Assembly: GCA_021779375.1 (NCBI GenBank)
Contig: JAJYAT010000006.1
Span: forward strand, 33,515-97,514
Source of the DNA: a bacterium
Lineage (GTDB): Bacteria; Patescibacteriota; Gracilibacteria; JAHISY01
Length of the DNA stretch: 64,000 nucleotides
Direction of reading: 5' to 3'
The stretch's first letter is position 1. Each line of letters starts with the position of its first letter. Under the pieces are notes generated by a model. The model ran no database searches. It had not been told where the DNA came from and worked only from the letters and a program-made list of their open reading frames with translations. A program made the position numbers and the translations under genes. Below are positions 27,449-46,098 of this stretch, one piece after another.

Positions 27449-29329
27449 ATGCAGAATTTATCCTCTAAGCTTGCCGCACTCCTAAAAAAGAATCCTCGCT
27501 TTCTCGATCAAGAGGGCGAGCTGCTGAAAAGTGCTGTAATCGATCAAGCGTGGAAAGCAGATCATGCGTTAATCGAATTAATTTTGGAAGATAAAGAAAT
27601 TAAGGCTAAGTTTTTTGGCGAGATTAAAGGTTGCTTGGTTTTCAACACGCCAAAGTTTGTAGACTTTGTGCAGGATAAAAATTTTCTCGATGATTCATGG
27701 ACGAAATATAAAAACAAAGTGGGTTTGAATATCCGCGATAAATTTTTACAAGAACGCGGCGAGGTCGCGTTGGTTTGGCCATACAAGGATTGCGTGTTGG
27801 AAGGCGGGATGACAAGTGAAGAGGATGAGCGGAAGGAGATTTTTTTCAATGAGGTATTGGCTCAAGATGAGATTGACCGCTTACTAGATCCGAAGGTTCT
27901 GGTGAATTGGGTGAGGCATACGAAAAAAGGATCGGAAAAAGTAACGGAATTAAAGCGCGGTGAAGATGGCACACTGAAAGAGAATTTGATTATCAAAGGG
28001 AATAATTTACTGGCATTGCACAGTCTGAAGGGTCAATTCGCTGGCAAAGTGAAGTTGATTTATATCGATCCGCCGTACAATACGGGAAATGATGGCTTCA
28101 AATACAACGATAACTTCAATCACTCGACCTGGCTGACTTTCATGCGGAATCGGTTGATGGCGGCGAAGGATTTACTACGAGATGATGGGGTGATTTTTAT
28201 GAATATTGATGACGATGAGTGCCATTACCTGAAGGTATTAGGGGATGATGTGTTTGGTCGAGAAAATTTTATAGCAAATATTGTATGGCAGAAGAAATAC
28301 ACAGTTGCTAACGATGCAAAGTATTTTTCGGATAATCACGATCACATTTTAGTTTTCGCAAAGAAAAAAGAATTTTTCAAAATTGGAGGAATTACTAGAA
28401 CTGATGAGCAAAACGAAAGATATCACAATCCAGACAATGACCCAAATGGTTCATGGATGACGCAGCCGTTACACGCCAAGAGTGGGAATGTCAGTGAGTT
28501 TGAGTTTATTTTTAGAAATGGAACCAAATGGGAGCCGCCAAGGGGAACCTTTCCAAGGTATTCAAAAGCGAGCCTAGAAAAATTTGAGTCACAAAATATG
28601 ATTTGGTTTGGGAAAGATGGCACCGCTGTTCCAAGACTTAAAAAATATTTAAAGGACATGGGTGATGTAACGCCTGCCACAATTTGGCTTCACTCCGATG
28701 TTGGTAGTAACGATGAAGCCAATAGAGAATTAAAACTTTTAATGGAGAAAATGGTTTTTTCCACACCAAAGCCTGAAAGACTTTTGCAAAGAATCATTGA
28801 ACTTGGCTCTGATGAGAGCGATATTATTTTAGATTTTTTTGCCGGCAGTGGTACATCTGGTGCAGTCGCGCACAAGATGAATCGGCGATATATTTTGATT
28901 GAGCAGATGGATTATATCCGCGACTTACCGGAATCACGTTTAAAAAAAGTCGTTGCTGGCGAGCAAGGCGGTATTTCCGAAGCAGTCGGTTGGAAGGGCG
29001 GCGGGGATTTTATTTATTGCGAGTTGGCGAAGTGGAATGAAAATTTTGTTGAGCAGATTCGTAACGCGAAGGATACAAAAGCACTTTTGAAAATTTGGGA
29101 GGAGATGAAGGATCCGCAGAAGAGTTTTCTAAATTACAATGTGGATTTGAAGCAGCAAGACGCGGCGATGGAGGAATTCAAAACTCTTTCGCTTGAAAAA
29201 CAGAAAAAGGTTTTGATTCACTTGCTCGATAAAAATCAGCTTTATGTGAATTTAAGCGAGATCGAGGACACAGATTACGCTATTTCCCCTGCGGATCAGA
29301 AATTGAACGGGAAGTTTTATAAAAGCTAA
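27449..29329 (+). CDS. mod: Type III restriction-modification system methyltransferase (Mod), N6-adenine type
   Basis: 626 aa. Motif IV DPPY (IYIDPPYNTG, nt 28067-28078), motif I-like FFAGSGTSG near the C-terminal third (beta-class order), and adjacency to res. Confidence 0.9.
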   Translation: MQNLSSKLAALLKKNPRFLDQEGELLKSAVIDQAWKADHALIELILEDKEIKAKFFGEIKGCLVFNTPKFVDFVQDKNFLDDSWTKYKNKVGLNIRDKFLQERGEVALVWPYKDCVLEGGMTSEEDERKEIFFNEVLAQDEIDRLLDPKVLVNWVRHTKKGSEKVTELKRGEDGTLKENLIIKGNNLLALHSLKGQFAGKVKLIYIDPPYNTGNDGFKYNDNFNHSTWLTFMRNRLMAAKDLLRDDGVIFMNIDDDECHYLKVLGDDVFGRENFIANIVWQKKYTVANDAKYFSDNHDHILVFAKKKEFFKIGGITRTDEQNERYHNPDNDPNGSWMTQPLHAKSGNVSEFEFIFRNGTKWEPPRGTFPRYSKASLEKFESQNMIWFGKDGTAVPRLKKYLKDMGDVTPATIWLHSDVGSNDEANRELKLLMEKMVFSTPKPERLLQRIIELGSDESDIILDFFAGSGTSGAVAHKMNRRYILIEQMDYIRDLPESRLKKVVAGEQGGISEAVGWKGGGDFIYCELAKWNENFVEQIRNAKDTKALLKIWEEMKDPQKSFLNYNVDLKQQDAAMEEFKTLSLEKQKKVLIHLLDKNQLYVNLSEIEDTDYAISPADQKLNGKFYKS

Positions 29330-29343
29330 AGCTTAATTAAAGC

Positions 29344-30360
29344 ATGATTATTAAAAATCATCCAAGTCGTTATCACCAGCGCAGAGAAGAGCTGATGATA
29401 AAAAAATACAAAAGTATTTTTGAAGATTTTGTTAATGCTCTAGATGAAGCTTTGGAAACTTTTAATGTTTTTTTTACATTAGGGAAAGACGAGAAAAAAC
29501 CAAACCAGCTTCTTTTTTGTCACATCGTTAATAATTTTGATAGTTTTATTAATAAAATCTACAAGGAAATAGTTTCCGATAATCCTGAGCTATCGAAGGA
29601 ATATTTTAAAAGAAAAAGGAATTTAGAAGATAAAGCAACACTCCAAGAAATCATCGCTATCGAGGAATATGGCATAAGAGCATGGATAAAAGAGGTCGCA
29701 TTAGAGCAGGCGGAAGAAGATATTAAAAATAAGAGGCATGCTCAGAAATTAGCGGCGCTGACTAAGAATCTCAAAATGCCGAAACTCTATGTCTGTCTTT
29801 CCGGTACGGGTAACACTTCAAGTGGTTGCCTAAAAAAAACACCTAGCAAAATAAAGAGCGTGAACCATAAAACAAATTCTGAAGAATTAATTGGCTTTGC
29901 TGATGTTTTGTACGAAAAGAGAAATGCCATTACTCACAATAGAAATATGTATCAAAAAAAAGTAATTCAAAGATTAAATCAAGAATGGAAAATCAATATT
30001 AATTCTGCATCAATAATTGTTAAAAGAGATTCCATAAAATCAGTTATTAGATTTTATGCTTCTGCTTGTTTAGAAATGATTAGCCTATTAAAAACAATAC
30101 CATTGGTTCAAGTCAAAAGTGATTTTTTGAATTTAAAAGATTTTAAACCAATAAAACATATCTCAAATATTTTAATTAGCGGAAGATGGAGTAAGTTTTC
30201 ACAACGAAGTCAAAAAACGTTCACTTATTCCGACTATAGAAATTTTTTTCCTAAAGCCTCCGAATCAACAATAAGAAGAGATATTAAATCCCTTAAAAAA
30301 GATGGAGTAATAACAGAAAAGTCTAAAAATGGTAAGAAAATATTATATGAAATAACATGA
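29344..30360 (+). CDS. Uncharacterised protein with Rx4H (HEPN-type) motif and C-terminal winged-helix, embedded between mod and res
   Basis: 338 aa. The motif EKRNAITHN has R193-H198 at nt 29920-29937. The C-terminus ESTIRRDIKSLKKDGVITEKSKNGKKILYEIT resembles a DeoR/wHTH. There is a 14-nt gap after the mod stop and an ATGA overlap with the res start. The ORF itself is secure; the functional assignment is weak. Confidence 0.5.
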   Translation: MIIKNHPSRYHQRREELMIKKYKSIFEDFVNALDEALETFNVFFTLGKDEKKPNQLLFCHIVNNFDSFINKIYKEIVSDNPELSKEYFKRKRNLEDKATLQEIIAIEEYGIRAWIKEVALEQAEEDIKNKRHAQKLAALTKNLKMPKLYVCLSGTGNTSSGCLKKTPSKIKSVNHKTNSEELIGFADVLYEKRNAITHNRNMYQKKVIQRLNQEWKININSASIIVKRDSIKSVIRFYASACLEMISLLKTIPLVQVKSDFLNLKDFKPIKHISNILISGRWSKFSQRSQKTFTYSDYRNFFPKASESTIRRDIKSLKKDGVITEKSKNGKKILYEIT

Positions 30361-32954
30361 CCAAATTCCTTTACGAAGAATACGACATCCTTTCCAAAAG
30401 AATCTCGAAAGAAATTCCAGCTTTCATGTCCGACAACCTTAGCCAAAAATTCTCCATTCGACCTTATCAAGTCGAGACCTTTGCTCGTTTCTTCGATTAT
30501 CTAAAAAACTACGAGGAGAAAACTTTACCGATCCACCTCCTTTTCAACATGGCCACCGGCTCGGGCAAGACACTCATCATGGCTGGATTGATTCTCTACC
30601 TTTACCAGCAGGGCTACCGCAATTTTCTTTTCTTCGTACACTCCAACAACATCATCGAAAAAACCAAAAATAATTTCCTCACCAAAGAATCGAGTAAGTA
30701 TCTTTTTGCCGAGAAGATTATTCTCGATGGAAAAGTGGTGAATATCGAGCAAGTGGCGAACTTCGAGGGTGTGAATTCGCAAAACATCAACATTTGCTTC
30801 ACGACTATTCATCAGCTTCACTACGACTTACACAATGTGAAAGAAAATGCGATTACTTTTGAAAACTTTCGCGAACACAAAATTGTTTTACTCTCTGATG
30901 AAGCGCATCACTCTCAGGCGACAACGAAGCAAAAAATGACCTTAGGTGAAGCATTGGAAAAACCGAGCTGGGAAAATACTGTCGAAAAGATTTTGCAGCA
31001 AAACAAAGCCAATTTGCTTTTAGAGTTCACCGCTACGCTCGATTTTCTCAATAAAAACATTGTGGAGAAATACGAGCCGAAGATTATTTACCGCTATGAC
31101 CTGAAAGAGTTTCGCAGTGACGGCTACTCCAAAGAGATTGACCTTTTGCAATCAGACTTTGAAGAAGAAGACCGGATTTTGCAGGCAGTGATTTTGAGTC
31201 AGTACAGACAAGAACTTGCCGGCAAACACAAAATCAATTTGAAGCCGATCATTCTCTTCAAAGCACAAAAAACTATCGAAGAATCTAAGCAGAACCAAGC
31301 AAAGTTCGACGGAATTATTGAAAATCTGTCAGTCAAAGACATCGAGCGTATTCGCCGTAAATCCCAAATCGAACTTATTCGGCAAGCTTTTCGCTTCTTC
31401 GCCGAAAACAAAACTACCGATGCGCTACTCGTAAAAATCCTCAAGCAAAACTTCTCACCTAATAAATGTCTTAATGTAAATGAGGAAAATCTAGATAAAA
31501 AAACTCTTAAGAAGCAAGATCGCCAAGAATTGATCTCTCAGCAACGTCTTTTGAACTCACTCGAAGACAACGATAATCAGATTCGCGCTATTTTTGCGGT
31601 ACAAAAACTCAATGAGGGCTGGGATGTTCTCAATCTTTTTGATATTGTCAGATTATACGAAACACGCCAAAGTGGCGGACGAGTCACCGCCCCTACTACG
31701 ATCGCCGAAGCGCAACTTATTGGACGTGGGGCAAGATACTTTCCCTTTTCTCATGAAGCCGGTGATGACAAATATAAGCGTAAATTTGATAAAAATTTAG
31801 CGAATGAATTGCGTGTGATAGAAATGTTGCACTATCATAGCATCAGCGACCATCGCTACATCGCCGAGCTGAAAACCGCACTAAAGAAGGAAGGTTTAAT
31901 TGACGACGATGAAATTACAAAAGAACTAAAGCTCAAAGAAGAATTTAAGAAGACTGAATTCTACAAAACAGGAATAATTTACAAAAACGAAGCTGTCGAG
32001 AAAAATAAACGTAAAATTAAGTCTCTCGCCGATCTGGGGGTAAAAAGTAAGAACATTTCTTACCTTATTCATTCTGGTGAGGGGAAAGATGCAGCTGTTT
32101 TCGAAGATTTCGCCCTAGAGGTTCAGTCGGTAGTAAAAACCAAAGATGTTTCCCTGAAAGAGATACCCGTTCATATTATTCGCTCCGCGCTTGCACGCAA
32201 CGATTTTTATCGTTTTATTAATCTTAAAACTGAATTTCCGATTTTAAGCTCAATTGCTAACTTTATCAAAAGTAAGGACTTTTTAGCCGGACTCTCGATC
32301 ACTTTTAGCGGAATGACCGACACTCTCGCTAATTTGCATAACACTTATTTATTCGAAGGTGCCAGTAAACTCTTAGCAGAGATCGAGCGGGAAATTAAGT
32401 CAAATTCTTTTGATTATGAAGGTGGCGAATTTCAGCCAGCCTACATTCACGAAGTTTTCAAAGATAAACTGATTAAGATGCGGCAAGGCGATACCCGCGC
32501 TGATGGACAGTTTAATTTTGTAAAGAATAAGGATTGGTATGTTTTCGACAATAATTACGGCACGAGCGAAGAAAAAAGTTTAGTAGAGTTTATGGCGCGC
32601 CAGATTGACGAAATGTCACCTGACTATAAAAAAGTCTATCTAATCCGCAATGAGCTACATTTTAAAATTCATAATTTTAAAGATGGAGAAGCCTTTGCTC
32701 CCGACTTTGTGCTTTTCTTGATTCAAAAAAATGGAAAGCAATTAACCTACCAAATTTTTATTGAGCCTAAGGGCGGTCATTTGGAGGATAAAGATAGATG
32801 GAAAGAGGATTTTCTTTTAGAGATTAGAGAAAAATTCAAGAATCGCGTTTTGACCTTCAAAGAATCTACTAAGTACAGAATCGTCGGTGTGCCGTTCTAT
32901 AAACAAGAGGAAGAGAATAAATTTAAAGAAGAATTATTAGTCTCAATTAAATAA
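30357..32954 (+). CDS. res: Type III restriction enzyme, Res subunit (SF2 helicase-nuclease)
   Basis: 865 aa. Helicase motif I MATGSGKTLIMAG, motif II LLSDEAHH, later helicase motifs (LNEGWDVLNL, IGRGAR), and a C-terminal PD-(D/E)xK-like region (PDFVLF...FIEPKG). Confidence 0.9.
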   Translation: MTKFLYEEYDILSKRISKEIPAFMSDNLSQKFSIRPYQVETFARFFDYLKNYEEKTLPIHLLFNMATGSGKTLIMAGLILYLYQQGYRNFLFFVHSNNIIEKTKNNFLTKESSKYLFAEKIILDGKVVNIEQVANFEGVNSQNINICFTTIHQLHYDLHNVKENAITFENFREHKIVLLSDEAHHSQATTKQKMTLGEALEKPSWENTVEKILQQNKANLLLEFTATLDFLNKNIVEKYEPKIIYRYDLKEFRSDGYSKEIDLLQSDFEEEDRILQAVILSQYRQELAGKHKINLKPIILFKAQKTIEESKQNQAKFDGIIENLSVKDIERIRRKSQIELIRQAFRFFAENKTTDALLVKILKQNFSPNKCLNVNEENLDKKTLKKQDRQELISQQRLLNSLEDNDNQIRAIFAVQKLNEGWDVLNLFDIVRLYETRQSGGRVTAPTTIAEAQLIGRGARYFPFSHEAGDDKYKRKFDKNLANELRVIEMLHYHSISDHRYIAELKTALKKEGLIDDDEITKELKLKEEFKKTEFYKTGIIYKNEAVEKNKRKIKSLADLGVKSKNISYLIHSGEGKDAAVFEDFALEVQSVVKTKDVSLKEIPVHIIRSALARNDFYRFINLKTEFPILSSIANFIKSKDFLAGLSITFSGMTDTLANLHNTYLFEGASKLLAEIEREIKSNSFDYEGGEFQPAYIHEVFKDKLIKMRQGDTRADGQFNFVKNKDWYVFDNNYGTSEEKSLVEFMARQIDEMSPDYKKVYLIRNELHFKIHNFKDGEAFAPDFVLFLIQKNGKQLTYQIFIEPKGGHLEDKDRWKEDFLLEIREKFKNRVLTFKESTKYRIVGVPFYKQEEENKFKEELLVSIK

Positions 32955-38391: not shown

Positions 38392-40269
38392 ATGCAGAAA
38401 AAACCCTCCACTCTTCTCGTGCTCGGTCTCGGCCTGATTGCCACCGTGAATCTGGCTGGTTGCGGCGCGGACAATTCGCTGCCACCCGCTGCGCCCGTCC
38501 TCACCGAGACGGCTGTCCGTGCGAGTCTGCCGGAGAATCTCGATCTCACCGGGACACTCACGCCCGTGCGCGAAACTGACGTCGCCGCGAAAGTGCCGGG
38601 TCGGATCATCGCGCTCAATACCGCGGTCGGTTCACACGTCCAGGCTGGTGAGATCCTCGTGGAGCTAGACGCCGGGACAGAAAAAGCTGTGAATGCGAGC
38701 GTCGTCGCTAGCCTCAATCAAGCGGCAAATAATTTGGCGACGGTTCGTGCGCTCTACGACGAACGCATCGCGAGTGCGGAAAAAAGTCTCGCGACTGCAC
38801 GTCTCGCCGGTGAAAAAAATCTCGACCTCGCCGAGACTCAGCTGAGTGAAACGCAAACCAGTGGTCTGGCGGCGGCAAATTCCGTCGGTGCATCGACTGT
38901 CTCACTCGTCGCCACGGAGCTCGCAACTGCCAAAAACGATCTCGCCAACAATGCCAAATCTGCCGCGACCAGTGCGGCGATGTACACTCAATCCGTCGCG
39001 GATTTCCTCGATCAATTACTCGGTGTCACTGACACCAATAAGAGCCTAAATGATAACTTCGAAAGTAATCTCGGCGCGCTCGACAGCAGCGCCAAAATTC
39101 TTGCCGAGGAAGCGACACGCGCGCACATCAGTGCAAACCAAGCTTTTCGCGCGGATTTCAACGCGCATCTGCTGAATCTCACGCCGACGGCAGCCGAGCT
39201 CGATCACAATCTCGTGCTCGCTGAAGCAGCGCTCACGACGGCGAAAACTGCACTCGAGAAGACGTCCACTTTGCTGCTGAAATCAATCACCTCGGCGAAT
39301 TTTGCAAGCGCCGCACTGGAAGGTTACAAGGCGAATGTGATGACACTCGGCGGCAGCGTCGAACAAACTCTGCTCGCTGTGAAAAATTTACGTGGTAGTA
39401 ATGGCATCGCTTCCCAAATCGCCGTACTCGAACAGCAGCTCGCACAAACCAAGCAACAAGTCGGAGCGAATACGACGGGCGTCGAATCACAAATCACGAT
39501 TCTCCAAAAACAAGTCGCAAAATCCCGCACCGATGTCGCAGCGCAAATCGAAGCGGCTGAACTCGGTCTCGCAACTCTCAAAAAAGAAAAGGACGCGAAA
39601 GTTGCTGAAGCGCAGGCGCTGCTCGTTCAGCTGCGCGGACAAGCCGGCATCACCGCCGAGAGTCTCGAGAGTGCGCTCGTGCGTGCGCCTTTCTCCGGTA
39701 TCATCACGCAAAAATTCGCCGATGCGGGACAAGTCGTGAATCCGAGCCAACCGCTCCTGCACATTGCCGACGAAAGCCAATTCAAAGTCGTGCTCGGAGT
39801 TCCCGACACGGCAGCCTCTGTGCTTGGTGTCGGTCGCGAGGCAACTGTCACAGCCGACGGAATCGCGAATCAAACTTTCGCGGGACGCATCACGCAGATA
39901 TCCCCTGCCGCAGATTCGGTTAGCAAAAAAATCAGCATGGACGTCACTTTGGAAAATCCCAACGCCGCGCTCAAAACCGGGCTCTTCGCTCGTGTCGCTT
40001 TCGCGCTCGCCGACACGGAGGGTGTCATCGTCCCTGCCGCTGCGCTCGTGAGTCGTTATGGCGAGAATTTCATTTATGTCGTCGCAGACGGCAAGGCCGT
40101 CGAGCGCAGTGTCGTGATTGGCAATCGTACTGCCAAATCGCTCGCAATCACTGAGGGAGTGCAAGCCGGCGAACAAGTCATCGTGAAAGGTCAGCGCTAT
40201 TTGCGCGACGGCGACAGTGTCGCTATTCAGACGAGCAGCGATGCGGTCGCCACTGCCAACTCTAAATAA
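38392..40269 (+). CDS. RND-type periplasmic adaptor (MFP) lipoprotein with very long coiled-coil
   Basis: 625 aa. Lipobox LAGC after the signal peptide. Lipoyl halves VGSHVQAGEILVELD ... APFSGIITQ are separated by about 320 aa of Ala-rich coiled coil. Confidence 0.7.
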   Translation: MQKKPSTLLVLGLGLIATVNLAGCGADNSLPPAAPVLTETAVRASLPENLDLTGTLTPVRETDVAAKVPGRIIALNTAVGSHVQAGEILVELDAGTEKAVNASVVASLNQAANNLATVRALYDERIASAEKSLATARLAGEKNLDLAETQLSETQTSGLAAANSVGASTVSLVATELATAKNDLANNAKSAATSAAMYTQSVADFLDQLLGVTDTNKSLNDNFESNLGALDSSAKILAEEATRAHISANQAFRADFNAHLLNLTPTAAELDHNLVLAEAALTTAKTALEKTSTLLLKSITSANFASAALEGYKANVMTLGGSVEQTLLAVKNLRGSNGIASQIAVLEQQLAQTKQQVGANTTGVESQITILQKQVAKSRTDVAAQIEAAELGLATLKKEKDAKVAEAQALLVQLRGQAGITAESLESALVRAPFSGIITQKFADAGQVVNPSQPLLHIADESQFKVVLGVPDTAASVLGVGREATVTADGIANQTFAGRITQISPAADSVSKKISMDVTLENPNAALKTGLFARVAFALADTEGVIVPAAALVSRYGENFIYVVADGKAVERSVVIGNRTAKSLAITEGVQAGEQVIVKGQRYLRDGDSVAIQTSSDAVATANSK

Positions 40270-40286
40270 TTTAACTATTTTCTGCG

Positions 40287-43200
40287 ATGGAAAACTTTTA
40301 CGCCCGTTTCGCTCGCGTCTTCGTGACGAATAAGCAACTCTCGCTCCTCCTGATTCTAGTCAGCTTTGCTGCCGGAATCCTGGGTTTTTACGCTACGCCG
40401 AAACAGTACAATCCCGAAATCACACTCCCCGCTTTTCGCATCACGACGGATTTTCCCGGAGCGACCAGCACGGAAGTTGAGCGGCTTGTGACGAGTGAAA
40501 TTGAAAACAAGCTGATGGAAATTCCCGGCGTCGACGAGCTGATGAGTCAATCTTTCGCGGGCGGACGCAGCGTCGTCTCGGTCATGTTTAAAATTGGCGC
40601 GGATCTCGACAAGGCCAAAACTGAGGTTTTCGAAAAAATGGCGGGCAATCTGGAGCTGGCGCCGCTCGGCGTAGGCGCGCCGCTCATTCAGCAAATCAAT
40701 CCGGAAAATGTCCCGGTTCTGACGCTCGCGCTTTCCAGTCAAACTTATTCGGCGGAGGGTTTACGCGAATTCGCTTACGACCTGCGTGAGCAGCTCAAAA
40801 CCGTGCCCGGAGTGACCAATCTCGAAGTCAAAGGCGGACGCGCTCGAGAGCTCAACATTTTTCTCGATCCGGGAAAAATGTCCGCGCGCGGTGTCGCGGT
40901 GACCGACATCGTGAATGCAATCAAAGCGAATAATTTGCGCGTCCCGGTCGGAGAATTACAGAGCACTGAAACTTTCATTCCCGTCGAAGTGGATGGCAAT
41001 CTCGTGAATCGTAATCAGCTAGCTGCACTCACAGTCGGTGGGCTCGGAGCCGAAGTCGTGCACCTCGAAGATGTCGCGCAAGTCGAGGATAGTTTTGAGA
41101 CAATCGAAAATCATGTGCGCTTCGCAGAAAAGGCAAATTCCGAAACGGCTTCGCCGACGCCTGCGACAGCGGAAACCACTTCAAATACAGTCTTTCTCTC
41201 GCTCGCCAAACTCAAAGGTGCGAATGTCTCTGACGTGACGGCAGCCGCGCTCGCGAAAGTCGAGGCACTTAAAAATAATTTTATTCCGGACGGCATCACG
41301 CTGACCGTCACACACGACGAAGGTACAACCGCGCGCGAAGAAGTGCAGATGCTCACGGAACACCTTTTCTTCGCGATTGCCATCGTCACGATTACGCTCA
41401 TCTTTTTCCTCGGTTGGCGCGCGGCACTCGTAGTGGCGACAGCGATTCCGCTCACGCTGGCACTCGTATTTTTCGTCGGCTTTATCTTTCACCAGACGAT
41501 CAATCGCATCACGCTTTTTGCTTTGATTTTTTCGCTCGGGTTGCTCGTCGATGACGCCATCGTCGTCGTGGAAAATATTTACCGCCACTTCAACAAAGGT
41601 CAGGAAAGTAAAACTGAGGCGGTCATCCGCGCCACGGGCGAAGTCGGCATGGGTGTACTGCTCTCGACCGTCACCGCAGTCATCGTCTTCTTACCAATGG
41701 GTTTCGTGACCGGCATGATGGGCGCGTACATGGGACCGATTGCTTTCTTCGCGCCAGTCGCGCGGCTCGCGAGTCTCTTCGTCGCTTATTCATTTTCGCC
41801 CTATCTTTCGCTTATTTATCTCGAAGAAAAAGGCGCGCAACACGAGCAACATTCCACCAAGCTTGATGTTTGGTATCGCAAACTGATTCAAAAAATTCTC
41901 GGTAATCGGCAGCTGCAAAATAAAATTCTCGGCGGCGTCATCCTCGCGACGCTGCTTGCATTTACTTTTCCGGTCTTCGAATTCATCCACTTTCGCATGT
42001 TGCCGAAGGCGGATCGCGAGCAATTTTACATTTACCTCGACGCGCCGGAAGGTACGAGTCTCGCGCAGATGGATGCCTTCGCTGCGCGCGCGGAAAAACT
42101 CAGCCTGCAAAATCCGGATGTCATTTCCGTGGAAACTTTTGTCGGCACCTCACAAGTGCTGGATTTCAATGGTCTGTTTCGCGGTGCCGATGCGCGCGTT
42201 TTTCCTTATCAGGCTACGCTCAAAGTGGATTTGAAAAATCCCAAAGAGCGCGCGCTCAAAAGCGAAACTATCGTCGCCGCACTGCGACCGCAGGTGCTTG
42301 AGCTCTTTCGGGATGAATTGGATTTGAAGGTGAAGCTCGTCGAAGATCCACCCGGTCCACCGGTGCTCGCGACTCTGCTCGCCCGCGTGAAAGGTCCGGA
42401 CGAACGCGTGCGCGAAAGTATCGCTCGCGACCTGCTCGCGATGTACCGCGCGACACCAGGCATCGTCGATCTCGACACTTCCCTGCCGTCTGGCGCGACG
42501 GAAAAACTCATTCGTCTCGACCACGCGAAGCTCGCCAGCTCCGGACTCTCTGCCGCTGAAGTGATTCAATCGCTCACCGCGGCAATCTCCGGCAGCAAAA
42601 TCTCGATTGCTCATCTCGACACGCGCGAACGCAATTATGTCTACGTGCGCTTCGCCGCGGATGCGCGCAGCACTCCCGCCAAACTGGACCAGATTTTTTT
42701 CCGTAACCACCTGAATCAAATGGTGGCACTCGGTAGCGTCTCCGAAATCGTCGACACCGCGACCGCAAGTCCGATTTGGCACGACAAACGCGAGGCGATG
42801 ACACTGGTTTCCGGTGAAATGAGTGGACGCGCCGTCACTTACGCGGTGAAAGATTTGATTTTCAAATTACTGGATTATCAGGGACCAGCGACCACTCAAG
42901 CCGCGACACCGACTGAAAACACCAAGCTCAAGCTTACGGGCTGGAATTTATTTGGTCTGAATTACCGTGACCAAACCACGGGCGACAATTATCGAATTGA
43001 GTGGGGCGGTGAATTTGAAATGACTTTGAAAAATTTCCGCGACCTCGGAATCGCGATGCTCATTTCTTTCTTCCTAATCTACATCACGCTCGTCGCGCAA
43101 TTCCGTTCCTTCCGTTCGCCCGCGCTCATCATGACGGCGATTCCACTTGCTTTCGCTGGCATCCTGGTCGGCTTCGCAGTGCTCGATCGCTTCGGAATTT

Positions 43201-43529
43201 ATTTCAGCGCGACCTCGATGATTGGCGTAATCGCGCTTGGCGGCATCGTCGTCGGCAATGCGATTCTCTTGCTGGATTTCATGGAGCAACTTCGCGAGCG
43301 CGGCTTCACGCCGGAAATGGCAATCATCGACGCCTGCCAGACACGCTTGCGCCCGATTCTCCTGACCGCACTCACGGCGGTACTCGGCTCACTCGTCATC
43401 GTCGCCGATCCGGTCTGGTCGGGTCTCGCCTGGGCAATCGCCATCGGTTTGACGATTTCCACCGCGCTGACTTTGGTGATTTTTCCGATTCTGTATTTGC
43501 GATTTGGCAGCGCGACTGCTGAGAAATAG
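40287..43529 (+). CDS. RND efflux permease (AcrB/CzcA superfamily)
   Basis: 1080 aa with 12-TM topology and two large loops. Conserved TM4 region SLGLLVDDAIVVVENI. Confidence 0.9.
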   Translation: MENFYARFARVFVTNKQLSLLLILVSFAAGILGFYATPKQYNPEITLPAFRITTDFPGATSTEVERLVTSEIENKLMEIPGVDELMSQSFAGGRSVVSVMFKIGADLDKAKTEVFEKMAGNLELAPLGVGAPLIQQINPENVPVLTLALSSQTYSAEGLREFAYDLREQLKTVPGVTNLEVKGGRARELNIFLDPGKMSARGVAVTDIVNAIKANNLRVPVGELQSTETFIPVEVDGNLVNRNQLAALTVGGLGAEVVHLEDVAQVEDSFETIENHVRFAEKANSETASPTPATAETTSNTVFLSLAKLKGANVSDVTAAALAKVEALKNNFIPDGITLTVTHDEGTTAREEVQMLTEHLFFAIAIVTITLIFFLGWRAALVVATAIPLTLALVFFVGFIFHQTINRITLFALIFSLGLLVDDAIVVVENIYRHFNKGQESKTEAVIRATGEVGMGVLLSTVTAVIVFLPMGFVTGMMGAYMGPIAFFAPVARLASLFVAYSFSPYLSLIYLEEKGAQHEQHSTKLDVWYRKLIQKILGNRQLQNKILGGVILATLLAFTFPVFEFIHFRMLPKADREQFYIYLDAPEGTSLAQMDAFAARAEKLSLQNPDVISVETFVGTSQVLDFNGLFRGADARVFPYQATLKVDLKNPKERALKSETIVAALRPQVLELFRDELDLKVKLVEDPPGPPVLATLLARVKGPDERVRESIARDLLAMYRATPGIVDLDTSLPSGATEKLIRLDHAKLASSGLSAAEVIQSLTAAISGSKISIAHLDTRERNYVYVRFAADARSTPAKLDQIFFRNHLNQMVALGSVSEIVDTATASPIWHDKREAMTLVSGEMSGRAVTYAVKDLIFKLLDYQGPATTQAATPTENTKLKLTGWNLFGLNYRDQTTGDNYRIEWGGEFEMTLKNFRDLGIAMLISFFLIYITLVAQFRSFRSPALIMTAIPLAFAGILVGFAVLDRFGIYFSATSMIGVIALGGIVVGNAILLLDFMEQLRERGFTPEMAIIDACQTRLRPILLTALTAVLGSLVIVADPVWSGLAWAIAIGLTISTALTLVIFPILYLRFGSATAEK

Positions 43530-43676
43530 ACTGGAAATTGAGCTAAATTTTTCGTGCAAAAAATATAATGACAGTTGCAGTTTTTTGCGTATAATCATCA
43601 TAAATAATGATTTGGTTTTTGAGTTGTATGGATTGAGTGGGAAGAAAAGGAGAGTGGTTTTAGATAGTTAAACAAA

Positions 43677-44639
43677 ATGCAACGAAAATTCGTTTACAAT
43701 CTCGAATTCCGTCCACATGTTAACCAGATGCAGATTGGAGATTACCTTTTTGCCCGAGTGCCAGAGTATGAAAACAGAGTAAAAAATTTACAACAGCTTG
43801 TTGATATTCATGATGGTGAATTCCATCTCGCCCCAACTACTGGAACCCATCAAATTACAGCGACCGTGCAAATACCAGAAAAAGAGAAAGTAGCAGCACT
43901 AGACTGGGGACATAATAATCCCACCCAGCTAAATGACATTTTGCTTTCACTAACGCTATTCACTGGCAGGAATGTTTTTGAGATCGATAACAAAGACAAA
44001 GATAAGCCTGTTATCACTGACCAACGAACATTCAACTATGGAGGAAGTTTGGAGTGTGCTTTAAATTATGAATCCGAATTTTTCGATCAAGATAGCGGCA
44101 GAGTTTTGGACAAAAGTGAGGCAAATTATATGACTTATCCGATGATGGTTCAGAGAGATGTAAGCTTAGAGAAGGGGGTAAATGCCGTGCTTGCGACTAT
44201 CTCTACATCAGAATGGCAAGCAAAGTATGATAAAGGCTATTTTCTTTTTCTTTATAGACAAGCCCTACAAAGAGCAATTATTGAAACAAACTTCATTCTC
44301 TGCTGGACAATTTGGGAGCACCTTTTTGCACTTCACAAACGTGATGAGTTATCTGAAACCGAATTAATGAATTCAAAACTAAAGAAAATTGAATTTATAT
44401 TTGAGACATACTTCCAAGAACAACTAACCGATAAAAGCAAACTGGAAATTGAAAGGGTGAAGAGAGCTAGAAATCGGCTTGTTCACTTTGGCAAAAAACC
44501 CGAAAATGTCGATTTCAAAGAAATGGAATTTTTTATACGCACAACTGATTGTTTGGCGGCAAAGACGCTCAACTTAACACCATCAAATCTTTTTAATACA
44601 GAAGAGAAAAGGAAGGAATTTCTTTATCCAATACGCTGA
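43677..44639 (+). CDS. Hypothetical protein with C-terminal HEPN-like four-helix region (RNxxxH motif)
   Basis: 320 aa in an AT-rich segment. The motif RARNRLVHFG has R265-H270 at nt 44469-44486. It follows helices IIETNFILCWTIWEHLFAL. The N-terminal ~190 aa are unassigned. Confidence 0.45.
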   Translation: MQRKFVYNLEFRPHVNQMQIGDYLFARVPEYENRVKNLQQLVDIHDGEFHLAPTTGTHQITATVQIPEKEKVAALDWGHNNPTQLNDILLSLTLFTGRNVFEIDNKDKDKPVITDQRTFNYGGSLECALNYESEFFDQDSGRVLDKSEANYMTYPMMVQRDVSLEKGVNAVLATISTSEWQAKYDKGYFLFLYRQALQRAIIETNFILCWTIWEHLFALHKRDELSETELMNSKLKKIEFIFETYFQEQLTDKSKLEIERVKRARNRLVHFGKKPENVDFKEMEFFIRTTDCLAAKTLNLTPSNLFNTEEKRKEFLYPIR

Positions 44640-44730
44640 TTTGTTGCTGCCTGTTTCGTTCGCCATCTCCGCCTGTCTTGCATTACGTTCCGTAACTCCG
44701 TGTCTCTCCAAAATCTAAACTCCAAACAAC

Positions 44731-44982
44731 ATGAAACCAGATCTCGTCCACTCGCTCAACGCCGATTTCGAAAGCCACGCCAAAAGCACTGAGAGCGGCA
44801 TTGAATTTTGGCTCGCCCGCGATCTCCAGCACTTACTCGACTACGACAAGTGGGACAATTTCGCGCAAGTAATTGCTAAGGCAAAAACAGCTTGCGAAAT
44901 CTCTGGTCACAAAATAGCCGATCATTTTGCTGACGTCGGGAAAATGATCAAGGCGGGAAAGGCGCGTAATATCAAGCCGTAA
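44731..44982 (+). pseudogene. dinD: Truncated dinD (DNA-damage-inducible protein D) N-terminal fragment
   Basis: The 83 aa FWLARDLQHLLDYDKWDNFAQVIAKAKTACEISGHKIADHFADVGKMIKAGK match the first ~80 residues of ~270-aa DinD proteins. The ORF then stops, and no continuation exists in any frame. Confidence 0.5.
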
Positions 44983-45007
44983 AGTCAGAACCGTGAAAAC
45001 TAAAAAC

Positions 45008-45076
45008 CCGTTAATTAACATAACTTTATTATAAAATTAACGGTAAATTGACAAATAAGCGTTAATTTGATAGACT
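45008..45076 (+). promoter_or_regulatory. fic promoter (TTGACA-17 nt-TAGACT, 6 nt before the ATG) with three CGTTAAT(T) boxes
   Basis: Inverted repeat CCGTTAATT (45008-45016) / AATTAACGG (45035-45043). TTGACA at 45048-45053. A third box, GCGTTAATTT, lies inside the spacer. TAGACT at 45071-45076. ATG at 45083 with no Shine-Dalgarno. Confidence 0.5.
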
Positions 45077-45082
45077 TCCCAC

Positions 45083-45973
45083 ATGGCTACCACCAATCCG
45101 ATCAAGAGCCGCATCAAAATTTTGAAGACCGAATACGACCGCCTGCGCCGCGGCAAAGAAGCACTGCTACAGATAATCGATGAGGCTGAACTTTCAGAAA
45201 GCGTTTTTAATTCAAACGCAATCGAGAATTCCACGCTCACTCTCAAAGAAACAGAAAAAATTCTGCTCGATTTGGAAGTCTCGCGGAACGTTTCTGTGCG
45301 AGAAGTTTTCGAAGCCAAGAATCTTGCCCGCGTGATGGATTATGTCAAAAACAAAAAATCCGAGAAGGGTATTTCCGCTGAAAGAATTTTGCTATTGCAT
45401 CATCTGCTCGTCGGCAACATAAACGACAAAATCGCCGGAAGATTCCGACAAAAGGGCGAGTATGTCCGCGTCGGCACGCATATCGCGCCAGCACCAGAAC
45501 AGGTGGAGAGCATGATGGAAGAAATTTTAATTGGCTACGGCAGCAATCACGACGATTACTTTATCGACAAAATCGCTAAATTTCACCTTGATTTCGAGAC
45601 CATCCACCCGTTTTGCGACGGCAATGGCAGAATCGGTCGCGTCATCATAAATTGCCAACTCATGCAGCTTGGTTTCCCAAATATTATTGTCCGCGATAAA
45701 GAGAAAAAAAACTATTACCACTCGTTCGCTGAATATCGGAAATCAAAAAACACCAAAACACTGGAAAAAATTCTCGCGCTGGCTTTGACCGAGTCGCTTC
45801 ACAAAAGAAATACTTATTTGCGGGGGGCAGCGATTATTTCATTGGCTGATTTTGCCAAACAAGAAAAAAAATCGCTCAATTCTTTAATTAATTTTTCCCG
45901 ACGGCAAACTCTCCCCACCTTTCGCGAAAAAGGCGTTTGGAAAATCGCGCAAAATTATAAATTTGAATCATGA
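45083..45973 (+). CDS. fic: Fic family protein (AMPylase-type), class II with N-terminal inhibitory helix
   Basis: 296 aa. Fic motif HPFCDGNGRIGR (nt 45605-45640). Inhibitory (S/T)xxxE(G/N) motif SNAIEN at residues 44-49. Confidence 0.9.
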   Translation: MATTNPIKSRIKILKTEYDRLRRGKEALLQIIDEAELSESVFNSNAIENSTLTLKETEKILLDLEVSRNVSVREVFEAKNLARVMDYVKNKKSEKGISAERILLLHHLLVGNINDKIAGRFRQKGEYVRVGTHIAPAPEQVESMMEEILIGYGSNHDDYFIDKIAKFHLDFETIHPFCDGNGRIGRVIINCQLMQLGFPNIIVRDKEKKNYYHSFAEYRKSKNTKTLEKILALALTESLHKRNTYLRGAAIISLADFAKQEKKSLNSLINFSRRQTLPTFREKGVWKIAQNYKFES

Positions 45974-46098
45974 ATAAATCCGAAATTTCCGCCGTCAGCT
46001 AAAAAACTGGAGCATAGATTAAAATCCGAAAAAAGGCAGACGCTCGAAAATCCTGACCATCTGGAAAACAGACGAAAATAATCAATCGTACAAATAAT

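Follow-up and report, generated by a model that had tools for sequence, protein, structure and literature searches.

A two-domain protein family with a predicted HEPN ribonuclease domain, encoded in an AT-rich islet of a gracilibacterial genome, as a candidate for anti-phage defence

Introduction

Does a 320-aa protein encoded in a small AT-rich islet of a gracilibacterial genome belong to the HEPN ribonucleases and, if so, is it likely to act against phages? The gene that raises this question lies on the forward strand of a 64,000-nucleotide stretch of contig JAJYAT010000006.1 (assembly GCA_021779375.1, positions 33,515 to 97,514); this whole stretch is hereafter called the window. A preliminary description of the window had drawn attention to an RNxxxH motif in the C-terminal part of the protein and had compared its layout with that of single-gene HEPN defence proteins of the ApeA or RiboL-PSP kind. 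Ribonucleases (RNases) that combine a sensor with a HEPN domain are a known design for abortive infection. To our knowledge, few defence systems beyond restriction-modification (R-M) and CRISPR have been characterised in Patescibacteria and similar small-genome lineages.

Here we report homolog searches, structure prediction and neighbourhood comparisons, from which the gene is predicted to encode a self-contained two-domain HEPN RNase of a distinct family. Defence or abortive infection is its probable biological role, and the gene is a credible candidate anti-phage gene. Our search of the literature found no paper that describes this family, and PADLOC holds no model for it.

Results

A coherent family with an invariant motif

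The open reading frame (ORF) is intact and begins at the first ATG past an in-frame TAG. Its coordinates, the Pfam match of the gene before it and the GC content agree with the initial account of a 320-aa ORF situated directly after an RND pump gene in AT-rich DNA. The protein contains VKRARNRLVHFG and carries an RNRLVH motif with R265/H270 at nt 44469-44486, and the codon positions of these two residues agree with those given at the outset. Among the window's own proteins the chance rate is 0.35 per 320 aa for Rx4H and 0.05 for RNxxxH. In one sequence taken alone the motif could have arisen by chance, and it is invariance across the homologs that gives it weight as evidence.

A word-indexed search of 5.8 billion proteins returned 173 homologs, and an exhaustive phmmer scan of 1.84 billion representatives returned 159 clusters at 50% identity. 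The full-length members are nearly all 300-340 aa in length and align from end to end, and the shorter matches resemble fragments. The family is a coherent one of ~310-330-aa proteins with a fixed two-domain layout, in which the nearest relative of the window protein is only 47-48% identical to it.

Conservation was assessed in 34 diverse database members and, independently of these, in 42 full-length copies drawn from genome loci. Both sets keep R265 and H270 without exception (34/34 and 42/42), so that the RNxxxH motif noticed in one sequence proved to be a property of the family. Among the database members N266 and R267 are each conserved in more than 90%, and among the genome-derived copies N266 is kept in 40/42, being replaced by H in one and by G in one. 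E214, T290, W180, W210, T61, D87 and R98 are likewise kept in all 42 of the latter, and H215 in 39. Among the signatures of active HEPN domains are an Rx4-6H motif, an N, D or H after the Arg, and an upstream acidic residue, typically in the form Ex3[KR] (PMC3710099, Anantharaman et al.). The family carries these three signatures of catalytically active HEPN domains, namely the Rx4-6H motif, a polar residue after the Arg and the upstream acidic residue; the position four residues after E214 is not K or R, and the typical Ex3[KR] form is not kept.

The C-terminal half as a HEPN domain

The Pfam matches of the family are all weak and almost all of them belong to the HEPN clan. The window protein itself matches HEPN_Apea with an E-value of 3.9e-4 (21.3 bits, residues 232-291). 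Among the 34 members, HEPN_Apea is matched by 12, HEPN_Swt1 by 7, HEPN_RiboL-PSP by 3, HEPN_Cthe2314 and DUF3644 by 2 each, and MauJ by 1; DUF3644 overlaps the EC042_2821 HEPN family (PMC3710099). MauJ (PF17419) was matched by its one member at E 0.009, an own-genome search gave no match at E-values up to 10, and the candidate was dropped. A generic HEPN label on some members is already known: NCBI names some homologs 'HEPN domain-containing protein', and a precomputed PF18739 tag stands on 8 of the 120 homologs listed.

When a profile of the C-terminal domain was compared with the sequences in the PDB, the best matches were three Ec2ApeA sequences (E 0.04-0.14). RNRLVHFGkfP of our family is aligned with RNLIVHTGKTP of Ec2ApeA, and the conserved helix CWTIWEHLF with the Ec2ApeA helix LWIAIESL, E214 standing opposite E, at a sub-threshold score. 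A profile of the whole protein matched no PDB sequence; only the C-domain profile recovered ApeA. Our reference for ApeA was the set of Ec2ApeA structures 9hxd, 9hxi and 9hxb, and R502A is the catalytic mutant of ApeA (bioRxiv 10.64898/2026.01.26.701840).

The full-length AlphaFold2 model (pLDDT 92, pTM 0.90) displays an alpha/beta domain at residues 1-160 followed by a helical domain from residue 163, with the motif placed at the end of helix 252-271 and followed by helix 280-297. An active HEPN domain is expected to have a four-helix up-down core in which helix 3 bears the motif and helix 4 comes next. The model of the C-terminal domain (pLDDT 88.7) has as its top Foldseek match the minimal HEPN protein AF_0298 (2hsb; probability 0.66, TM 0.44/0.53, root-mean-square deviation 5.2), and seven of the top 15 matches are HEPN proteins, these being 2hsb, Las1, AbiV, MtlR, Csm6', HepS and Csm6. 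Seven HEPN proteins among 15 fold matches is not a chance outcome. The fold that had been proposed from the motif is supported by three kinds of match, to HEPN-clan Pfam models, to Ec2ApeA and to 2hsb, with no single fold match significant. We are highly confident that the C-terminal part forms a HEPN domain whose active-site signature is intact.

A non-catalytic HEPN domain, acting as an RNA or ligand binder or as an MtlR-like regulator, or else a housekeeping RNA-processing factor, would be a different outcome of the same fold. Some HEPN domains are non-enzymatic (PMC3710099), MtlR is among the weak fold matches, and several loci lie amid housekeeping genes. The R, N, H and upstream E are nevertheless conserved in the 42 compared full-length copies, the His being lost in one separate, decaying copy, and a housekeeping function would be hard to square with a gene that is missing from 40 relatives and from >99.9% of species genomes. 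We regard this explanation as very improbable.

One further observation came from the whole-model Foldseek search, in which the sole high-probability match was BFVD entry A0A3S6HCY2, an unnamed 222-aa viral protein (probability 0.91, E 0.28, 186 columns). It may be a phage-encoded HEPN-like protein.

The N-terminal domain

The N-terminal part had been described as an unassigned domain of ~190 aa. The lack of an assignment stands, as no relative of the domain was found in Pfam, among PDB sequences searched by profile or among known folds searched by Foldseek; the length does not, since AlphaFold2 places the domain at residues ~1-160 with helices starting from ~163. The PDB profile search returned a Cas9 fragment and a Photorhabdus toxin at E 0.13, a chance level, and both were rejected. 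At the sensitivity of phmmer the domain is confined to this HEPN family. T61, D87 and R98 within it are invariant, and N8, E10, R27, E48, H58, E70, D115 and R117 are near-invariant. The domain is presumed to be a sensor or regulatory domain.

A metagenomic relative of 565 aa (P0126) has a 247-aa N-terminal extension, which is without a Pfam match and contains LRNFIVH, a motif of the RNxxxH type. This protein may be a tandem-HEPN fusion.

Neighbouring genes at homologous loci

Neighbours were clustered over four genes on each side at ~50 loci. No conserved partner or antitoxin gene was found, a result that fits a single-gene system, and the clustering recovered only R-M genes, a metal-transporter pair and recombinases. 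R-M genes are the commonest identifiable neighbours of the family, lying within 5 kb at no fewer than 14 of 53 loci and representing at least four R-M types. Together with the sporadic occurrence of the gene and its AT-richness relative to its flanks, this agrees with the expectation that the homologs would not be consistently embedded in housekeeping operons.

The closest linkage was seen in five loci from Dehalococcoidia and other Chloroflexota, where the gene for a Type ISP/IIG enzyme (Type_ISP_C E 2e-99; PADLOC REase_MTase_IIG) lies upstream on the same strand and stops 10-20 bp short of the HEPN gene. The cassette, a 1,030-1,078-aa Type ISP/IIG enzyme followed by the HEPN gene, occurs in L020 (6864-10945), L039, L042, L043 and L045. 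The ~1,040-1,080-aa upstream genes of several loci were considered as counterparts of the window's RND pump, an idea that was rejected when they proved to be Type ISP R-M enzymes. In a Pacearchaeota-labelled metagenome-assembled genome (L006, 286-6228), the HEPN gene is located between a Type III mod and a res gene, the junctions being short gaps or overlaps. Type III mod and res genes lie downstream of it in L005. A ResIII protein adjoins the HEPN gene in L027, and an MmeI-type IIG enzyme is two genes away in L035. C5 and N4/N6 methyltransferases end 4-7 bp upstream in L008 and L009, methyltransferases occur within 4 kb in L012 and L025, and a Type I S subunit gene is 3 bp downstream in L030.

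PADLOC, a run of which the preliminary description had proposed, has no model for the HEPN protein but gave matches among its neighbours. The 94 immediate neighbours matched 303 models, several of them by 3-6 proteins, versus 54 models for 94 control genes situated 5-10 kb from the HEPN gene, a crude control in which no model was matched by more than one gene. The control genes (from L003-L057) themselves include KwaB of Kiwa, mad2, mad3 and mad8 of MADS, a Type I methyltransferase and a defence-type reverse transcriptase, so some copies appear to reside in larger defence islands.

The linkage to R-M genes raises the prospect of a PrrC-like guard: physical association with an R-M enzyme would hold the RNase inactive, and disabling of the enzyme by an anti-restriction factor of a phage would release the RNase. 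On this view the copy in the window either has been orphaned by loss of its partner or cooperates with the Type III system, which lies 10 kb away. The tight, same-strand, operon-like arrangements (the Type ISP enzymes at 10-20 bp in five loci, L006, and L008 and L009) speak for such a guard, as does the embedding of HEPN families, including ApeA/BMEI1217 and Abi2, in R-M operons (PMC3710099). Most loci, the window included, are however without an adjacent R-M gene, and the variety of unrelated R-M types is hard to reconcile with a single specific interface between proteins. A promoter-like site of its own also precedes the window gene, and the sole R-M system of the window already carries a different inserted gene. 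An R-M-dependent guard is in our judgement unlikely.

In a Magasanikbacteria genome (L001:5463-5996 / L010:9436-9969) the HEPN gene is preceded, at a distance of 4 bp, by the gene for a 177-aa AAA_28 P-loop protein, and the pair is wedged between a Ham1-like gene and a thymidine kinase gene. It may be a lineage-specific two-gene variant.

Distribution, transfer and decay

The source genome (1.07 Mb, 98% complete) has the gene in single copy, and the gene is absent from the 40 relatives searched, eight of which belong to the same genus. Relatives of the protein were found in 52 of 185,579 species genomes (one genome per species). The carriers belong to Patescibacteria, DPANN-labelled bins, Omnitrophota, Chloroflexota, Planctomycetota, Bacillota, Myxococcota, Actinomycetota, Verrucomicrobiota and Bipolaricaulota, and about half of the full-length genome-derived copies are from Patescibacteria and similar small-genome bins. 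Homologs are also present in the more tractable Paenibacillus elgii (P0110), Desulfosporosinus hippei (L017) and Myxococcus xanthus (L051). A maximum-likelihood tree resolved two main clades. In the one made up mainly of Patescibacteria (support 99/99) the window protein forms a long and deep branch, and a Pacearchaeota-labelled copy is nested among Patescibacteria.

The GC content of the gene is below that of its flanks in 42/42 loci, by a median of 7 points. Serine recombinases are nearby in five loci, and the Paenibacillus copy has a transposase and an RHS toxin in its vicinity. Five copies (L016, L030, L048, L054 and L055) are frameshifted or interrupted by stop codons, and the copy in L053 has lost the His (RQDLFY) and ends early, which suggests frequent decay. 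The HEPN gene is a horizontally moving, dispensable accessory gene, because its spread across phyla is sporadic, it is absent from relatives, its GC content is low and some of its copies are decayed.

This mobility is also what would be expected of a selfish toxin or addiction module, which would stabilise islets or R-M cassettes, or serve in inter-strain conflict, and would have no part in phage defence. The sporadic spread of the gene, its AT-richness and frequent decay, and the presence of recombinases and transposases close by are all in keeping with it, and HepT-type HEPN toxins are known from toxin-antitoxin pairs; the ApeA preprint takes HepT as its minimal HEPN comparison (bioRxiv 10.64898/2026.01.26.701840). 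No conserved small antitoxin candidate is present within four genes on each side, however, nor is an MNT-type nucleotidyltransferase partner among the neighbour families listed, and the large conserved N-terminal domain suggests regulated activation, not constitutive toxicity. A selfish element of this kind seems to us quite unlikely.

Homologs at L032:1737-2693 and L034:10001-10942 are interrupted only by in-frame TGA; for either homolog the first eight interruptions listed are without exception TGA. Several such codons stand at Gly columns of the family, including the invariant G272 (HF*RK versus HFGKK). The pattern fits genetic code 25, in which TGA is read as Gly and which Gracilibacteria and Absconditabacteria employ. 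The contig of L032 bears the label Woesearchaeota archaeon, and it may have been mis-binned.

Setting in the window

The features of the locus are collected in Table 1. The HEPN ORF has a GC content of 37.7% and the islet that contains it 40.4%; along the ORF the values run from 0.37-0.40, versus 0.52-0.59 in the pump gene, from which the ORF is separated by a spacer of 147 nt. Within this spacer, a promoter-like site suggests that the HEPN gene may be transcribed on its own. The edges of the islet are without convincing flanking direct repeats or att-like sites, and only 12-20-nt matches of a chance type were seen there.

Table 1. Coordinates of the HEPN gene, its domains and other features of the window
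Feature	Position	Strand	Basis and remarks
HEPN gene, uncharacterised two-domain family	43677-44639	+	Homolog searches and AlphaFold2 model; 320 aa
N-terminal alpha/beta domain, residues 1-160	43677-44156	+	Predicted structure, conservation
C-terminal helical domain, predicted HEPN, residues 163-320	44163-44636	+	Pfam, PDB sequence and Foldseek matches
E214-H215 in conserved helix CWTIWEHLF	44316-44321	+	Conservation; E214 is the upstream acidic residue
R265-N-R-L-V-H270, predicted catalytic Rx4H motif	44469-44486	+	Conservation; aligned with RNLIVH of Ec2ApeA
Promoter-like site, ATGACA-16 nt-TATAAT	43568-43595	+	11/12 matches, ~80 nt before the start codon; consensus scan only
AcrB-type RND pump gene	40287-43529		Directly upstream of the HEPN gene; Pfam ACR_tran, E 1.5e-167
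Low-GC islet	43530-46098		Holds the HEPN gene, dinD stub and fic; ~40% GC versus ~53% in flanking genes
dinD stub	44731-44982		83 aa; covers just positions 3-78 of the 288-position DinD model
fic	45083-45973		Pfam E 3e-20; PADLOC PDC-S04/SoFic
Type III mod-res operon	27449-32954		Nearest R-M genes to the HEPN gene
338-aa Rx4H protein	29344-30360		In the slot between mod and res

The two genes that share the islet had been named as a dinD remnant and fic, and the partial DinD match and the Pfam and PADLOC matches to Fic agree with those names. Fic was considered as a functional partner of the HEPN protein and rejected, Fic being absent from the 25 families listed of the 61 Pfam families matched by neighbours.

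No R-M gene adjoins the HEPN gene in the window. The nearest is the Type III operon at 27.4-33 kb, whose inserted 338-aa Rx4H protein is unrelated to the 320-aa HEPN protein. Kinship between the two was tried and rejected (BLASTP E 1.8, hhalign probability 0.2), as the description of two unrelated Rx4H proteins in 64 kb had anticipated. With L006 as the other instance, it seems that cargo genes recurrently occupy the junction between mod and res.

Two same-genus genomes (G003 and G005) share with the window an alpha-2-macroglobulin (A2M) and PBP pair at 72-73% identity, and past the 3' end of the PBP gene their genes are entirely different from those of the window, which marks a synteny break. 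The HlyD-like adaptor and RND pump genes (38392-43529) have no orthologue in the same-genus genomes searched, whose best match (~30% identity) corresponds to a paralogue elsewhere in the source genome (contig C2); for the pump, the relatives searched likewise gave nothing better than 30% identity. The strain-specific region may extend to the left of the AT-rich islet despite the normal GC content there.

Discussion

The reading that we find best, and consider probably correct, is that the protein acts as an autonomous sensor-HEPN RNase in abortive infection, its defence role being read from the genomic context. In the mechanism that we propose, two HEPN domains would dimerise to create a composite, metal-independent RNase site, and the family-specific alpha/beta domain would keep the enzyme latent until it sensed an infection cue, which might be a small molecule or a protein of phage or host. 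Once activated, the enzyme would cleave cellular RNA (tRNA, rRNA or mRNA), leaving 2',3'-cyclic phosphate ends, and the infected cell would stop growing. Autonomous action is favoured because, in the window, the gene has no adjacent R-M gene and probably has its own promoter.

Several points weigh against this proposal. A latent RNase must avoid self-toxicity without an antitoxin, and the sensor role of the N-terminal domain is purely a matter of inference. The HEPN_Apea score of the window protein (21.3 bits) is below the Pfam gathering cut-off of 24.4; the best C-domain Foldseek match has an E-value of 1.5, so that none is significant singly; whole-model Foldseek searches of the PDB and BFVD gave nothing significant (best E ~0.3); and no PADLOC, NCBIfam or PHROG model matches the protein. 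An hhalign comparison of the family with four bona fide HEPN_Apea proteins covered 43 columns only, around the catalytic helix (E 0.0045, probability 7.8). With respect to context, about three quarters of the loci have no recognised defence neighbour, many have housekeeping neighbours (MetRS, thymidine kinase, IleRS) among which the single gene is inserted, and the five Type ISP cases occur in related Chloroflexota and are not independent events.

A broader proposal, to which we give rather less than even weight, is that these proteins constitute a new single-gene anti-phage family in which an alpha/beta sensor of a kind not seen before gates a compact HEPN RNase; that the family has been transferred mainly among ultra-small Patescibacteria (together with DPANN-labelled bins) and Chloroflexota; that it has repeatedly been recruited, as second-line defence, beside or inside R-M operons of four types; and that it responds to a signal of infection or of R-M failure distinct from the deoxydinucleotides of ApeA. 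If the family does serve in defence, a compact (320 aa), single-gene, RNA-targeting immune effector would be added. The polar residues of the N-terminal domain, N8, E10, R27, E48, H58, T61, E70, D87, R98, D115 and R117, would be candidates for a new trigger-sensing module, and placement by Type I, IIG/ISP and III R-M systems and stand-alone methyltransferases would offer a testable case of layered immunity by R-M and RNase. Should the gene not serve in defence, a clean annotation remains, that of a HEPN-domain accessory gene in a strain-specific islet.

Comparison with known HEPN systems

As a class, proteins that combine a sensor with a HEPN domain in the vicinity of R-M genes were predicted in 2013 (PMC3710099), and the present family can be set beside several named systems. 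ApeA is the closest worked example of a HEPN tRNase governed by a pocket outside the active site, its ligand pocket switching on cleavage of the tRNA anticodon. Both proteins stand alone and place non-HEPN parts before a C-terminal HEPN domain; among PDB sequences ApeA matches best, HEPN_Apea is the Pfam model most often matched by the family, and the ApeA/BMEI1217 family is also found in R-M operons (PMC3710099). ApeA is, however, a mainly helical protein of ~580 aa with three domains (N, Mid and a split HEPN with insertions) that assembles into decameric or dodecameric rings (bioRxiv 10.64898/2026.01.26.701840), whereas the 320-aa window protein is modelled with an alpha/beta N-terminal domain and a compact HEPN domain of ~160 aa. 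No PADLOC model, that of ApeA included, matches it at E-values up to 1. The four bona fide HEPN_Apea proteins, which came from 401 same-phylum genomes, are 439-475 aa long and share a different N-terminal region, with which our N-terminal domain gave no alignment. Membership in ApeA was accordingly rejected on size, domain layout, the PADLOC result and the sub-cut-off Pfam score.

PrrC, the example for guarding linked to R-M, and RloC are HEPN RNases genetically linked to R-M genes (PMC3710099) and provide a model for second-line defence. Unlike the present family, they possess an N-terminal ABC-type ATPase; no ATPase family was matched in the window protein or its homologs, and the R-M genes linked to the present family are of several unrelated types, with no such linkage at most loci.

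Minimal and Abi-type HEPN proteins gave the best fold matches of the C-terminal domain (2hsb, TM 0.44/0.53; AbiV 9bj5, 0.41/0.44; HepS 9oik, 0.35/0.30), though all fold E-values are >=1.5 and the N-terminal domain of our family is missing from all of these proteins. Both 2hsb and AbiV are typically without the canonical His (PMC3710099), whereas this family keeps R, N and H. A likeness to Abi2 and Swt1-like proteins is seen in the Swt1-like HEPN model, matched by 7/34 members. HepT-MNT differs from the present family, in which no conserved small neighbour occurs within four genes on each side (~50 loci); no nucleotidyltransferase is among the 25 Pfam families listed of the 61 matched by immediate neighbours. 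The likeness to RiboL-PSP proteins consists of weak HEPN_RiboL-PSP matches in 3/34 members; no RiboL-PSP N-terminal domain was detected, and the window protein has no match to the model.

Of the ApeA-like or RiboL-PSP-like layout given in the preliminary description, the fusion of an N-terminal domain to a C-terminal HEPN domain holds, but the protein is a member of neither family. These labels are to be taken in the sense of 'works like', not of 'member of'.

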